NCBI GenBank assembly: GCA_965215125.1 | Contig: OZ244052.1 | Span: 1,130,068 to 1,194,067, forward strand | DNA length: 64,000 nucleotides | Reading direction: 5' to 3' | Source of the DNA: an uncultured candidatus Porisulfidus sp. | Lineage (GTDB): Bacteria; Pseudomonadota; Gammaproteobacteria; Poriferisulfidales; Oxydemutatoraceae | In this document: positions 21,001 through 27,000 of the stretch, one piece after another | How the letters are laid out: every line of letters starts with the position of its first letter | Numbering within the stretch: position 1 is the stretch's first letter | Position numbers: made by a program

Positions 21001-24000
21001 TATAATTGTTATGTACTTTATCCATCAACCCGTCGCATTGGTGATACATGCCGCCCAATAATTTGAGTTGATACATGTCGTCCATGATTGCTTTCAGATG
21101 AGATTTAGGCAGAGAACGATTATCTTTCTCGACCTCTGTCGCAAGTCCGTCTAGCAGAAAACCGACTGCTTCTATAAATTTTTGTTTGCCGCAGTCCTTG
21201 ACGACCTTGTTGTAGGCTTGTGTGATGCTTTTATAGTCTAGTACTACGTCTCTATAAAGATCTCTGAGTCCTTGAACCGTGCCGACCCCTTGTTCGGCTG
21301 CGGCTGCGGCACTTTGAGAGACGTTGATACCGGCGTAGATTTGCGGCCCGTGTCGGGCTTCCAGTTGTGTGAGCGCATTGCCCAAATTTGTAACCAGTTC
21401 GGAGTCCGCGCCGTCTTCTTGCAACAGGTCTCGGGCATAAGAAAGTGCAAGGAATTGATGGCTGACATCAGGGTAGGATTTCGCAGCGAACTCTTGTAAT
21501 TGTTTCGGACCGCTGGATTTATGCATTTCTGCGACTTGTTTGGCAAACGCCGCAAGTTTCTTGTTTTTTTCGAGGTCGTTGACTTGTCTTAAATAATGTT
21601 CGGCTTGTTTCATCGCAAAAGATTTAATCCCGGTTTTGCCCAATTTGCGCTTGGCGAGTTTTTTCTCTACTTTCTCGCTATGTACAAAGCTCAATTCCTC
21701 TGCCGAATCTTCTAACATCGCTACCGGATCCTGAACTAGCGCGACGCGTTGACCTTGATAATTTCCGTCGGCGCGTGCTGCGCGCCCGGAAGGCTGAGCC
21801 GTACTATTGGAAGTCAGCGGTGTGGTAGCCGGGTTGTGAACATCAACCATGACGTGCTTCGTGAACAGACAGCCGTGTTATACCCGAGTAGCTATAGCTT
21901 CGGTGGTCGTGTTACTACTTTGCATTAACTGTTGCATTTGATCGTAGACTTTTTCTGCATCGTTGCGTACCGATTCGGCGTATGCCTTTTTCTGCTCCGC
22001 CAAGCTACGTCTTTCGGACGAATCCGCCTCGATGTCTTTAGATTCGGCTTGCTTTTCGTCCGAATAATACTTGAGTACCGTAGAGACAGTCTGTCCTACA
22101 CCCTGCACGATCTGAGATACGCCTTGCGTAAAGGTAGTGACATTTTGTGCTCTTTGATAGGTTATCAAATTGCCGCCCCCTTTAGTCTTTGAACGAAGCT
22201 TTTTTTGTATAGATTTTTCCTCATCTACTGCGTTGTTCTTATCGGCTTCGTCGGGGTACTCGGTATTGTTAACTTCTTTATCATCCAGCGGTACATCGTT
22301 TGCTTTTTGTGCCGCCTTTTGAAGTTTTTTCTCTTGATTTTTTATATCGTTATCTATGTTGTCACCTTCTTCCGTAGACTCGGTCTGCCGGGACTCGGCT
22401 GACTCCGGTGTCGATTCGATAGAAGCCGAGGCTTTAGTCTCGTCTTCTTGGGGCTTGTTCGGTTCAATTTCGGATTCGCTAGAATCTAGCGATTCGGTTT
22501 CCATAGTTTCGGAACCAGATAGCATTTTTGTGCTTGCTACTGCGCCCCCCAAAGAGATAGCGCCGCCGACAATCTGCATGCTACCCATAGCAATCCCGGC
22601 CCCAAGCGCAAATTTTGCCGCTTCTCGAATCGTTTGTGCGGCTTCTTTTAGCTTGGAAGCAACACTGAGTGCCGCCTCCATCGCATCGTCTTCGGCAACT
22701 TTCTCGTTCTCAACCATGGATTTTTCCATGACATCCATTACCGCAAAGACATCGTACTCAACCGAACCTAGAATCGTGCCGCTTAAGCCCAGTGCCGAAG
22801 AGAGATCAAATTTGCTGTCGGGTGTATGGTTTAAGGGCGGCGCATTGTCTTTCTGAACTCTCGGAGACGGTGCGCCCGAAGTGTCGTACGGAAGGGGGGC
22901 ACCAGGCGCAGTTGTTCCGCTTGTGGGTACCGGTTGCGCGGTATCTATGGTTGTTATAGGAGGGGGGGTTTTGTCTATTTCGTTCATAAAACTCCTCCTT
23001 AACCGTTTATGGTTAGCTTTTTTAAATTAGATCGTATGTAATTATAGCATAAACGGGGGACCTATGTACAAGTATGTATAATAGAAATTTGCCGACAATG
23101 AAAGCCTAAAATAAGAGAGTCAAGCTAATGGTCATGTAACAACAAAGGGAATTATACAGATAACTTGACAAATAAATGTTAAATTATATCAATGAAAACT
23201 CATAGAATAATCAGATACCGCTTGTATCCAGCGACCTATGAAAAGCATCGGCAATTACACGGAACTGCCGGAGCGTGTCGTTATGTTGGGAATCACTTTG
23301 TAGCTAAGTTAAAGGATGAATACGAGTATTACGGGGAGAGCCGGTTCAGCTTTTTCACCCTAGGCAAGCAATTTACGACATTGCGAAAGCATTGCGACAA
23401 GTGGTTGCAAGGTTATTCCGCTTATATCGTGAAATCATCACTACAACCGATAGAGATAGCATACAAAGGATTTTTCAAGGGCAACAACGTATTGCCGAAG
23501 TTTCACGGCAAATATACGCATAGCCCGTCATTCCCGATCAATTATCAATCGGCAAAGATATCAGGTTGTCACTTGTATATACAGAAGGTCGGCTGGATAA
23601 AGTTTGCCGGTGGAGATAAATACAGGAGTGAGAAGTTTGTATCGGGTCAAGTCAAGTATGAGTGCGGTCATTGGTATGCGTATATTTGCTATGAAGTAGA
23701 GCTAGCGGACAAACCGCACATGCTCAAGGAAGTGGGTCTGGATAGGAATGTGGGACAGATAGCATTGTCGGACGGAACGATGTATTACCTACCTAACTTG
23801 AAGCGTAAGGAAGCAAGGCGTAGGCGGTATCAACGCATAGTTGCTAGGCGGGTTAAGGGAAGCAACAGACGGAAACTAGCACGGCACAGACTAAACAAAG
23901 CATACCAAGCGGAGCGTAATGCGAGGGCGAATTGGTGTCATAAAACCAGCAAGCTAATAGCGGACAAATACGACATCGTGTATATGGAAGGATTGAATAC

Positions 24001-27000
24001 AGCAGGCATGACGAAGTCGGCGAAAGGGACAATAGAAGCACCGGGCAAGAATGTGAAAGTAAAGTCAGGTTTGAATAGGGAGATACTAAAAAGTGGTTGG
24101 TATAAACTGGAACAATGCTTAAGCTACAAAGCATATATAGAAAAGGTCAATCCGGCATATACAAGTCAAACCTGCAACAGGTGCGGAAGCATAGATAAAG
24201 CGAACCGCAAAACACAAGCGATATTTAAGTGTCGGCACTGCGGACACGAGGACAATGCAGATGTCAATGCTGCATTAAACATTTTGGCGGCTGGGAGTAC
24301 CGCAGCTGGGCGTGGAGATTGCAACATTGGTTGGTCTGTGAAGCGTCAAAAAGATAGGGTAACGGGGCGGTCTAACAAGTCTGTCAAGTCACCTATATAA
24401 TTCCCAAAACAAATGATTATTTTTCATAGGATTAAATTTATCTATATCAAATCGGATAAAGTTGTCGGCATGTCATTCGAGATGGTATATGAGGCATAAA
24501 TACACGCGGAGCCGTTGAAAAAGTATTTCATACACCGTAGGGACGGACTATTCCCTTCCTGTGGAGGGGTGGCAGGCGTGAGAACCGCAGCTTTATCCTG
24601 TCCCTACAGGTGGTTTGGATAATTATGTGGCACACAGCGGGTTGGATTTGTGCGGTGTCAATAGTTTTGCAACAGCCCCGCGTACATAGGTTCACGACTT
24701 AAATTTCCTTCTCTAGATATGTTAATGTCCGTTGCCAGGCGATTTCCCTTAGGCATCTTTGTTGTTGAACCGGGGTTGGCAATGCGCGAACTGCTCCTTG
24801 CATTGATGCTCGGTATCGTCGCACTATGTTATGTCTGGGGGTGGGGAGTGATCGTCAACATCGTCATTGCGGTTATCACCGCCGTCGTATCCGAGGCGGT
24901 GATCCTAAAGATCCGAGGCATCGCAGTCATGCCGATACTACAAGATTACAGCGCGATAGTGACCGCAGTCCTACTGGCACTGGCTCTTCCTCCTTATCTG
25001 CCGTGGTGGGTTGTGGTCATTGCCTCGGCTTGTGCAATCGTGATAGCAAAACAGTTGTACGGTGGTCTCGGTAATAATTTGTTCAATCCGGCAATGGTCG
25101 GCTATGCAATCGCAATGATTGCTTATCCGCTAAACTTGACGGTGTGGCCCCCCGATGTATTGACGGCAACCCGTTTTGATTGGGTTCAGGCGATTGATTA
25201 TGCGGTTAACGCCGCTAGCGAACCTTATGTTGCTACACTCACCGGTGCAACACCTCTGGATCTTTGGCGTACCGACAGTGATTGGCAACCGCGTGTAGAA
25301 ACCACAATGATACATTGGAATGTTATCAATATCTGTTTTCTAGTCGGTGGATTATGGCTACTGCTACGCCGTCTTATCCACTGGCATATTCCGGCAGCGA
25401 TACTATGCACACTGTTCATTGCGGCTTTGGTATTTCCCGGTGGTTTATCACCGCATTCGTCGTTGTGGCTACATCTGGGATGCGGTGCAACGATGATCGG
25501 TGCTTTTTATATTGCCACCGATCCGGTCACCTCGCCGCGCCACCCGTATATGAAAGTACTGTTCGGTATCGGTGTCGGTGTATTGACTTTTATAATCAGA
25601 AAAAACGGCAGTTATGCGGATGGTTTTGCATTTGCGATACTATTGATGAACCTTTTTGTTCCTTTAATGAACCGTTATGCTAAATAAACATTATGCAGGC
25701 ACCTATTTGCTTGCCTTAGTCGTTATGGTTGCGGTGGCAAGTCTAACGAGCAGTGAGTTTTGGACTCGCGAGGCGCGCACGCAAGCACAACAAGAAAAAA
25801 TTGAACAAAGCCTTAGTGCGGTAGCACCGATTACCGATTACGATAACAATCCGCTACAAGAAAAACAGTACCGACAACACGGCGGGAAAACCTATATCGC
25901 GTATCCGTTCACAAGAGATGGTCAATTGGCAGGCTATGTAATACAAAATGAAACATATTCCGCTTACAATGGGTTGCTGAAGGTATTGGTCGGGTTGCGA
26001 CGCAACGGGACTTCCAGCGGTGTTCGCGTTGTAGCGCATCGTGAAACCCCCGGATTGGGCGACCGTATAGAACCTCGGAACAATCGCTGGATACTAAAAC
26101 TTCAAGGAGCTACGGTTGATAAACGCTCGTGGCAGCTCAAAAAGGACGGCGGTGTAGTGGCCAACTTAACCGGTGCCACCGTTAGTGCACGCGCAACATT
26201 GAACAGCGCACACGAGGCTTTGTTATACTTTACACGCGATTTAGAGTATTAGGATACACGATAAGTGAACACACAAGCAATCAAGCAAATTATTGTTGAG
26301 GGTTTTTGGGAGCAGAATCCCGGCGTGATACAGTTGTTAGGCTTATGCCCGCTACTTGCAGTGACGACGACACTGCAAAACGGGTTCATCTTAGGCGTCG
26401 CCAGTCTAATCACCGTAACCCTAAGCTGTTTGTTGGTTTCGCTATTGCGGCATTATATTTCTATGCCGTTGCGACTACCGATTTGCATTGTGATTATTGC
26501 CATGATTGTCGGAAATATAGACCTGTGGATGGCAGCGATGCTTTACGAGCAGCACCAAGTCTTAGGTCTATTCGTACCGTTGATTATCAGCAATTGTGCC
26601 ATCTTGGCGCGTGCCGAAGCGTACGCACTACATCATCCTCCCTTATATGCAACGGTGGACGGGCTGGCAACCGGCTTAGGATTTATCGCAGTGCTTTGTA
26701 TAATCGGTACTTTTAGAGAGCTCTTAGCCTACGGGAATTTGGGAGCAGGTGCGGGGATACCGATATTTTTGCCGGCGATTACGCCGGCAGGCGCATTTTT
26801 TAGCCTTGCGTTGTTAATCGCACTGATCAAGTTTTTAAAAACATACTACGGCACAGAACGGAAACCGGCACGACTCAGCAAATGACTAAACAAAAAATTA
26901 TTCGAATATTCGAACGGCTGAAAGCACAAAACCCCGAACCTCGCAGTGAACTTAAATATCGTTCTCGCTTTGAACTGCTGATTGCGGTTATTTTGTCGGC

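Follow-up and report, generated by a model that had tools for sequence, protein, structure and literature searches.

TnpB is the ancestor of Cas12, and its established role is the restoring of IS200/IS605 elements after scarless excision. We analysed a tnpB gene in a stretch of 64,000 nucleotides of contig OZ244052.1 (assembly GCA_965215125.1) from an uncultured candidatus Porisulfidus sp.; this whole stretch is called the window below, and coordinates given without a locus are window positions. The gene lies between type III secretion system (T3SS) genes and rnfD. The first-pass annotation had described it as a standalone IS605-type tnpB with a structured region downstream, situated where rnfABC should be. 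We detected that tnpB is part of an element with inverted terminal repeats, flanking target-site duplications and a predicted omega-RNA scaffold, as follows.

23192-24400, plus strand: tnpB, encoding 402 aa, with the RuvC residues D184/E266/D357 and a CxxC...CxxC zinc finger conserved
23147-23170, plus strand: left terminal inverted repeat GGGAATTATACAGATAACTTGACA, found by repeat search; the homology among copies begins here
24382-24405, plus strand: right terminal inverted repeat TGTCAAGTCACCTATATAATTCCC, which includes the stop codon of tnpB and forms the 3' side of the terminal RNA hairpin
23139-23146, no strand: left target-site duplication ACAACAAA, matching 24406-24413 at 7 of 8 positions
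24406-24413, no strand: right target-site duplication AAAACAAA, matching 23139-23146 at 7 of 8 positions
~24229-24405 (5' limit approximate), plus strand: predicted omega-RNA scaffold, overlapping the tnpB 3' end and finishing at the right end of the element

The tnpB element and its predicted omega-RNA

The tnpB open reading frame (ORF) is real and, judged by its residues, TnpB looks catalytically intact. The Pfam domains HTH_OrfB_IS605, OrfB_IS605 and Cas12f1-like_TNB were detected in the protein (E-values 6e-13, 4e-19 and 8e-6, respectively), and residues 8-377 align with the ISDra2 TnpB structures 8exa/8bf8/8h1j, which is a full-length match (E ~2e-26). In the alignment of 12 TnpB sequences D184, E266, D357, C331, C347 and C350 are invariant and C328 is nearly so. 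The earlier IS605-type assignment is supported for the protein, with its domains, RuvC residues and zinc finger, but not for the element, the ends of which are unlike those of IS200/IS605. The reported lack of tnpA was confirmed: none is adjacent, and tblastn with an approximate Y1 TnpA query gave no match better than E = 0.1 in the window and ~730 kb of tnpB-flanking loci. No serine recombinase adjoins any tnpB copy in the called-gene tables inspected. The left repeat is separated from the tnpB ATG by a gap of 21 nt only. TTGACA is located at 23165-23170 in the left end, facing inward, and the best -10 overlaps the tnpB ATG; at the other side, the tnpB stop codon (24398-24400) is inside the right repeat.

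The scan with one genome per species detected 24 loci related to the window tnpB. Six of them are in the Candidatus Oxydemutatoraceae metagenome-assembled genome (MAG) OZ244779.1 (protein identity 82-90%), four are in two 'Porisulfidus' MAGs (~72%), and the remaining loci are in other gammaproteobacterial MAGs (35-56%). A metagenome scan detected only 7 loci, and it contributed 5 further copies.

The comparison of 26 related copies, by blastn and by alignments of copies from six genomes, delimited the tnpB element to 23147-24405 (1,259 bp). DNA similarity among the copies at unrelated sites starts at 23147 and ceases at 24405-24407, a few nt past the tnpB stop codon. The omega-RNA and right end had been expected in a hairpin farther downstream, but the last position of the element is 24405, only 5 nt beyond the stop codon, and the ORF itself holds the scaffold in its 3' end. 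The left and right repeats are 24 nt long and 88% complementary according to the repeat search; these inverted ends start with GGGAATTATA, and 24-nt inverted repeats are kept across copies of 50-90% protein identity. Folded as single-stranded DNA, the element ends gave no hairpins (-1.0 and -1.7 kcal/mol, z > 0, no better than shuffles).

AT-rich duplications of 8 bp were recognised at 18 of the 26 copies. They are perfect in 11; in the other 7, among them the window copy, the two sides agree at 6 or more of the 8 positions. For the copy at locus L005 the target duplication is proven by the comparison of an empty and a filled site, with a single CTATAATT in the relative L008 and CTATAATT-element-CTATAATT in L005. 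For the window insertion no empty site could be compared base by base, because the spacers at the orthologous position in L025, L030 and L040 are too diverged. Among the 18 elements with a confirmed duplication, position -1 of the left duplication is a purine in every case and position -2 is T in 11, while the mirror position on the right flank is a pyrimidine in only 12. The left-flank purine could be a minimal target-adjacent motif (TAM) or a preference of the transposase.

The omega-RNA alignment included the last ~220 nt of 27 elements. RNAalifold predicted 31 pairs, and compensatory double changes are present at 13 of these. Pairing was found in 97.1% of the cells, versus 31-41% with the partners slid by 1-3 columns, and 85 double-change cells were observed versus 5-15 in the slid controls; the observed pairing and double-change values were attained by none of 500 shuffles. 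The scaffold helices are formed by 24229-32/24244-47, 24256-60/24270-74, 24287-93/24298-303, 24309-13/24343-47 and 24316-25/24330-37. A terminal hairpin (~24358-24393) lies directly before the outer repeat and was predicted in 26 of the 27 copies, with varying sequence and length; the inner part of the right repeat forms its 3' half. In the metagenome copies an 18-nt insertion lengthens one helix, though it adds six codons to the ORF. The synonymous-codon identity, calculated for 19 intact ORFs, is 0.40-0.55 over codons 1-340, and 0.59 for 24212-24286, 0.80 for 24287-24352 and 0.75 for 24353-24397.

We built a covariance model, R1, from the last ~160 nt of the elements of this TnpB family. R1 scores 148 bits at 24246-24405 and matches copies outside its training set, namely those in L016, the second copy in L019 and two copies in L022 (115 and 97 bits, at 9886-11218 and 20303-20574). 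The covariation, the covariance-model matches and the synonymous constraint locate the scaffold at ~24229-24405, indicating that the omega-RNA scaffold is inside the 3' end of tnpB, in the last ~170 nt of the element. The guide of IS200/IS605 TnpB is read from the DNA just outside the right end (PMC10691335; bioRxiv 10.1101/2023.03.14.532601). By analogy, the guide of the window omega-RNA would be the flanking DNA beginning with the duplicated target:

24406-24425, plus strand: predicted guide portion of the omega-RNA AAAACAAATGATTATT, flanking DNA starting with the duplicated target

IS1595-type ends and proposed mobility of the element

The loci compared contain the outermost 12 nt of the repeats, GGGAATTATAYA, at other places too, and all family members have them in common. 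Two elements with shared ends encode transposases. L017:13640-16022 (2.4 kb between the ends) encodes a 313-aa protein with the Zn_ribbon_IS1595 and DDE_Tnp_IS1595 domains and additionally carries a passenger, a frameshifted N6/N4 methylase-HNH; L032:16001-17348 (1,348 bp between the ends) encodes a 319-aa IS1595 transposase with the same two domains. Both share 12-16 or more terminal nt with the tnpB elements of the same genomes. In OZ244850.1 the L015 tnpB element and the L017 insertion sequence have 16 identical terminal nt, and ~22 of the first 26 are identical by manual count. The 8-bp duplications and the Zn_ribbon_IS1595/DDE_Tnp_IS1595 domain pair are the marks of the IS1595 family (PMC8101967).

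Shorter and differently loaded elements were detected as well. L003 contains a 250-bp miniature of the L032 element, flanked by the perfect duplication TAAATAAA, and at L002:4699-6025 the same end motifs enclose a methylase gene and a 152-aa ORF, without a transposase. IS1595-type ends seem to mobilise varied cargo. The ends fit 'ggnnatTAT', the ISfinder consensus of the ISNwi1 group. A miniature of the tnpB element itself is present in the window:

44874-44945, minus strand: 72-bp miniature tnpB derivative, flanked by TTAAGAGT/TTAAGAAT

This miniature consists of 8 nt of the left end and the last 64 nt (the 3' part of the omega-RNA and the right repeat) of a Porisulfidus-type tnpB element, and it is located between the ferrochelatase gene and the next ORF. 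Its covariance-model match is weak (20.3 bits), and compensatory changes preserve the terminal hairpin in the alignment with the right ends of L005, L006 and L008. The distant L022 element (9886-11218; Pseudomonadales MAG, 35% TnpB identity) has perfect 23-bp inverted repeats of its own, GGGACTTGTGCAGCAAAAGAAGC, from which we conclude that the repeat-bounded, DDE-type association is old in this TnpB lineage.

We consider it highly probable, from these sequence comparisons, that 23147-24405 is a non-autonomous element composed of tnpB and its omega-RNA between IS1595-family (DDE) inverted repeats, present at this locus as a simple insertion at an older break of the rnf operon. Several observations weigh against this conclusion. 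A recognisable duplication is lacking in 8 of the 26 copies, and the L003 element is a clean, duplication-free insertion in comparison with two empty orthologues. The only flank signal is the purine at -1 and T at -2, with no defined TAM, and the clade-A tnpB elements are identical to the IS1595 copy of the closest genome only in the outer ~12 nt. No IS1595 transposase is present within the 64-kb window, and the 2,220,706-bp contig carrying the window RnfD holds none of the 120 database proteins most closely related to the L032 transposase. In the omega-RNA, no covariation accompanies the pairing predicted between the terminal UCC and a GGA upstream, and the guide start might fall after the right repeat or within it.

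The L003 insertion was reconstructed by comparing L003:9956-11214 with L008:5560-5760 and L005:11212-11340. The empty site reads ...CTATGAAAAAAG^ATGTTAGACCC, and in the filled site the element is exactly at ^ between CTATGAAAAAAG and ATGTTAGACCC, with a G-to-A change in addition. The L005 element sits 45 nt from the L003 insertion point, in the orthologous spacer of another genus.

An ordinary IS200/IS605 (IS1341-type) solo tnpB, moved by a Y1 TnpA encoded elsewhere in the genome and with ends and flanks that are coincidental, appears very unlikely. The window element resembles the IS1341 group (ISDra2 TnpB) in the protein fold and the IS605 OrfB Pfam domains, with full-length similarity and intact RuvC and zinc finger, in a structured RNA running from the ORF 3' end to the right end, and in having no transposase gene within the element. 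Most tnpB genes are without a nearby tnpA (bioRxiv 10.1101/2023.03.14.532601), and the L003 copy inserted without duplication would also agree with this explanation. However, IS200/IS605 and IS607 are defined by the opposite of inverted repeats and target duplication (PMC13565253); the IS1341 group has neither, and has subterminal hairpins and a fixed left TAM, whereas the window element has 24-bp repeats conserved among the copies and belongs to a family with 8-bp duplications in 18 of 26 copies, one of them proven at an empty site. Moreover, the ends form no subterminal DNA hairpins, no TAM-like motif of four or five nucleotides is conserved beside the left end, IS1595 transposases are bounded by the same ends, and Y1 TnpA was undetected in ~800 kb with the approximate query. 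IS607, with its serine recombinase partner, likewise lacks inverted repeats and duplication, and the window element has both. A nested IS605-type insertion in an IS1595 miniature was considered and rejected, because the 21-nt left gap and the run of the ORF and RNA into the right repeat leave no space in which IS605 ends of their own could lie.

Alternatively, the guide might start with the outer 12 nt of the repeat, UAUAUAAUUCCC, which are constant, and the scaffold would end before them; TnpB would in that case target IS1595-family ends and act on this transposon family, not on empty sites. The last covarying hairpin stops just before these 12 nt, their pairing with the upstream GGA has no covariation support, and they are shared by the whole family. 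We regard this option as very improbable nevertheless: every copy would target its own right end unless the TAM is missing there, the -1 purine bias of the left flank suggests selection on the flank sequence, and in all studied TnpB systems the scaffold reaches the transposon boundary and the guide is the flank (PMC10691335).

For the non-autonomous IS1595-ended element we propose mobilisation in trans, by an IS1595-type transposase that would recognise the repeats and bind to them. Read-through transcription past the right end would produce an omega-RNA with a guide from the duplicated 8 bp onward. TnpB would cut element-free copies of the locus according to this guide, and repair or recombination would restore or spread the element.

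The rnf operon and the downstream repeat

The gene following the element is a neighbour and not part of it:

24719-25687, plus strand: rnfD, full length; the 17 closest homologues are all 320-322 aa

The rnfG, rnfE and nth genes are intact after rnfD, in agreement with the first-pass annotation. A truncated rnfD was considered and rejected, as the length agrees with that of the homologues and the gene keeps the start codon of the intact operons, in which the end of rnfB runs over the rnfD start. The intact operon metG-rnfA-rnfB-rnfD-rnfG-rnfE-nth was detected in L026/27, L028/29 and L041, in relatives with RnfD identities of 82%, 75% and 51%, and no rnfC is located between rnfB and rnfD. The comparison indicates that this is the ancestral operon in the clade, and the idea that rnfABC universally precede rnfD does not apply to it. 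The claim that rnfABC are missing was partly right: rnfA and rnfB are absent from the 64-kb window and T3SS genes lie upstream, but rnfC is not expected at that position. An RnfC-type domain was detected in none of the 20 scanned ORFs of at least 346 aa outside the T3SS/rnf stretch of the window. The suggestion that this locus could be a second, partial copy, with rnfABC and another rnfD elsewhere, was not borne out; metG-rnfA-rnfB are found at another locus in an OZ244779-like genome, without rnfD and with a changed RnfB tail. RnfB (P0130) is on a record from a 2,220,706-bp contig, and the window RnfD likewise.

Split relatives (RnfD identity 82-87%) have the order sctV...HrpJ/TyeA, a 370-aa gene, a spacer of 240-410 bp and rnfD. 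The T3SS genes beside rnfD in the window form a partial cluster only, with sctV, a YscX-like gene, a STAS-domain protein gene and HrpJ/TyeA. The T3SS-rnfD junction is present in L025, L030, L031 and L040, and tnpB is in none of the four; in the window, tnpB is inserted in a 464-bp spacer between the T3SS-linked gene and rnfD. A remnant of ~20 nt from the 3' end of rnfB precedes rnfD in L030/31, and a fainter one is recognisable in the window, placing the cut of the operon within the last ~25 nt of rnfB. Since tnpB-free relatives share the junction, the operon was split before and independently of the tnpB insertion, and the 8-bp duplication of the element points to a simple later insertion. 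According to this comparison, tnpB landed by chance at an older breakpoint: an earlier cut near the rnfB end created the spacer, which the tnpB element later entered. The comparison of the rnf locus in relatives upheld the proposed break upstream of rnfD, with T3SS genes abutting, but tnpB had no part in it, contrary to the proposal that a T3SS/effector/tnpB segment interrupted the operon.

A degraded state of the operon was detected at L019:3865-7806, in a 1.85-Mb relative, where metG, nth and a piece of rnfB (residues 80-154) are all that remains of the operon; directly downstream of this remnant are two tnpB elements, one of them disrupted. Three states of one operon (intact, split and degraded) are hereby documented in related symbionts, which is of local interest. 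L032:10916-11286 (minus strand), downstream of rnfB, and window 24514-24681 (plus strand), upstream of rnfD, contain colinear segments in inverted orientation, and their gene-proximal ends correspond. These shared segments could be the two ends of a segment inserted between rnfB and rnfD. An inversion between two dispersed-repeat copies was considered as the cause of the rnfB-rnfD split and rejected, as the segment orientation does not fit a simple inversion.

The reported ~320 nt of non-coding DNA downstream of tnpB, with hairpin arms, are present: 318 nt separate the tnpB stop codon from rnfD, and the arms GTAGGGAC (24537-24544) and GTCCCTAC (24600-24607) lie 137-207 nt past the stop codon. 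They belong to the following feature.

24514-24617, plus strand: dispersed intergenic repeat (one copy), outside the element, with the core ATTCCCTTCCTGTGGAGGGGTGGCAGGCG at 24550-24578 and outer arms at 24537-44/24600-07

The repeat core ATTCCCCTCCTGTGGAGGGGTGGCAGGCG contains the hairpin CCCCTCC/GGAGGGG and usually has GCTGTTGAAAAAGTGTCTGCATTAGTAC before it and AAGCCTGACGGGGTGGTTGT after it. We found 10 copies of the core in the 758 kb of sequence searched, including 47946-47974 (minus strand) in the window and copies in L002, L005, L006, L007 and L025; the L025 copy (9902-9930) lies upstream of rnfD in a tnpB-free relative. The hairpin block is placed outside the element by the end of copy homology at 24405, and the dispersed repeat is, on these comparisons, unrelated to the tnpB element. 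Rfam gave no match at E <= 10 for 22000-26000 or for the second copy of the dispersed repeat.

We also evaluated a domesticated, immobile TnpB, a TldR-like RNA-guided regulator that would control rnfDGE or the neighbouring T3SS gene. The location of tnpB between two divergently transcribed units would suit such a regulator, as would a promoter-like CTAACA-18-TATAAT at 24372-24401 (plus strand), the -10 of which is within the right inverted repeat and which faces rnfD, and the absence of the 120 closest database relatives of the L032 transposase from the source contig. The probability of this role is very small, however: TldR proteins have lost RuvC residues and occupy a single-copy fixed locus, whereas the D-E-D triad and the zinc finger of the window TnpB are intact and the element occurs in several copies at unrelated sites, where every copy has a duplication of its own. 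The same junction is without tnpB in four relatives, and the promoter scan found the region no richer in such sites than shuffled sequence.

Least probable of all is the explanation in which the GC-rich downstream hairpin is the right end or omega-RNA and the T3SS/effector/tnpB block entered rnf as one unit, displacing rnfABC: the hairpin arms exist and the operon is broken exactly here, abutting T3SS genes, but the copies share nothing past 24405, R1 finds only 24246-24405 and has no match in 24406-24720, the region 24406-24718 folds like shuffled sequence (z = -1.34), the hairpin core is dispersed and also present at the orthologous site in the tnpB-free L025, four relatives have the junction without tnpB, the element has its own target duplication, and intact operons have no rnfC between rnfB and rnfD.

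Relation to known systems and other window features

Altae-Tran et al. 2023 (PNAS) described six DDE-transposase-associated TnpB branches (DDE-1 to DDE-6), all with inverted terminal repeats, and inferred mobilisation in trans for some solo TnpBs found within the same ends as transposase-bearing copies (PMC10691335). A 2026 review lists ISL2, IS630 and IS1031 as DDE partners and calls such associations rare (PMC13565253). IS1595 is not named in the main texts of these two publications, so the window tnpB element is probably a new member of the rare DDE-transposon-carried TnpBs. It resembles these systems in the symmetrical inverted repeats around tnpB, in the distance of less than 250 bp from the tnpB 3' end to the end of the element and in the sharing of ends between solo tnpB copies and transposase-bearing copies. 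It differs from them in the partner family, IS1595 (Zn-ribbon and DDE_Tnp_IS1595, 8-bp duplication), and in having the stop codon and the last RNA hairpin inside the repeat, and among the copies seen none has tnpB together with a transposase inside one pair of ends. Within IS1595, elements with ISNwi1-like ends are similar in the termini GG(G)AATTAT and the AT-rich 8-bp duplication, and autonomous, passenger-carrying (the L017 methylase-HNH element) and miniature forms coexist in the same genomes; the window element differs in that the transposase gene is wholly replaced by tnpB and the RNA gene.

IS1595 is the bacterial relative of the eukaryotic Merlin (PMC8101967). Fanzor in DDE transposons is comparable to the window TnpB: in both, the cargo of a cut-and-paste type transposon that has inverted repeats and forms target duplications is an RNA-guided nuclease, and the guide is expected to start in the duplicated target; Fanzor is the eukaryotic TnpB homologue, whereas the window TnpB is bacterial and compact. 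Merlin is not known to carry Fanzor.

A more far-reaching possibility, which we put forward only tentatively and hold to be doubtful, is that this TnpB/omega-RNA lineage (35-90% identity, in several gammaproteobacterial symbiont genomes) became an obligate passenger of DDE ends, with the two systems physically fused and with the invariant purine to the left of the duplication as a minimal TAM. If so, the last RNA hairpin would be built from the transposase-binding repeat, the guide would start with the 8-bp duplication made by the transposase, and only insertions beside a purine would gain RNA-guided retention. Such a lineage would parallel, in bacteria, the Fanzor nucleases of eukaryotic DDE transposons and would directly test whether RNA-guided homing benefits target-duplicating transposons. 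In this reading, the L003 insertion without a duplication might reflect a second route of insertion that depends on the nuclease. The benefit of an RNA-guided nuclease to a DDE transposon, which leaves behind a break and a duplicated target, is an open point in the 2026 review (PMC13565253).

Bacterial examples of TnpB with DDE transposons are few. The family described here is a natural example that is compact and multi-copy; its ends and duplications are defined, and it offers an empty site, a covariation-supported RNA and candidate transposases in the same genomes. For annotation, we suggest that a 'solo tnpB' should not be assigned to IS605 by default, and that the 3' end of the ORF, not the nearest hairpin downstream, is the place to look for the omega-RNA.

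Other features were observed in the window. It probably spans the replication origin, as judged from its sequence, with dnaN and dnaA at 5279-7859 (minus strand) and a sign change of the GC skew near 6000. Two proteins with IpgD-type inositol-phosphatase effector domains, of 862 and 951 aa, are encoded at 14375-16963 (minus strand) and 56144-58999 (minus strand). Three consecutive ORFs (360, 394 and 732 aa) at 59363-63807 (plus strand), without a Pfam match, are made of mutually similar ~1-kb repeats, which are repeated also in L004:1-4111.

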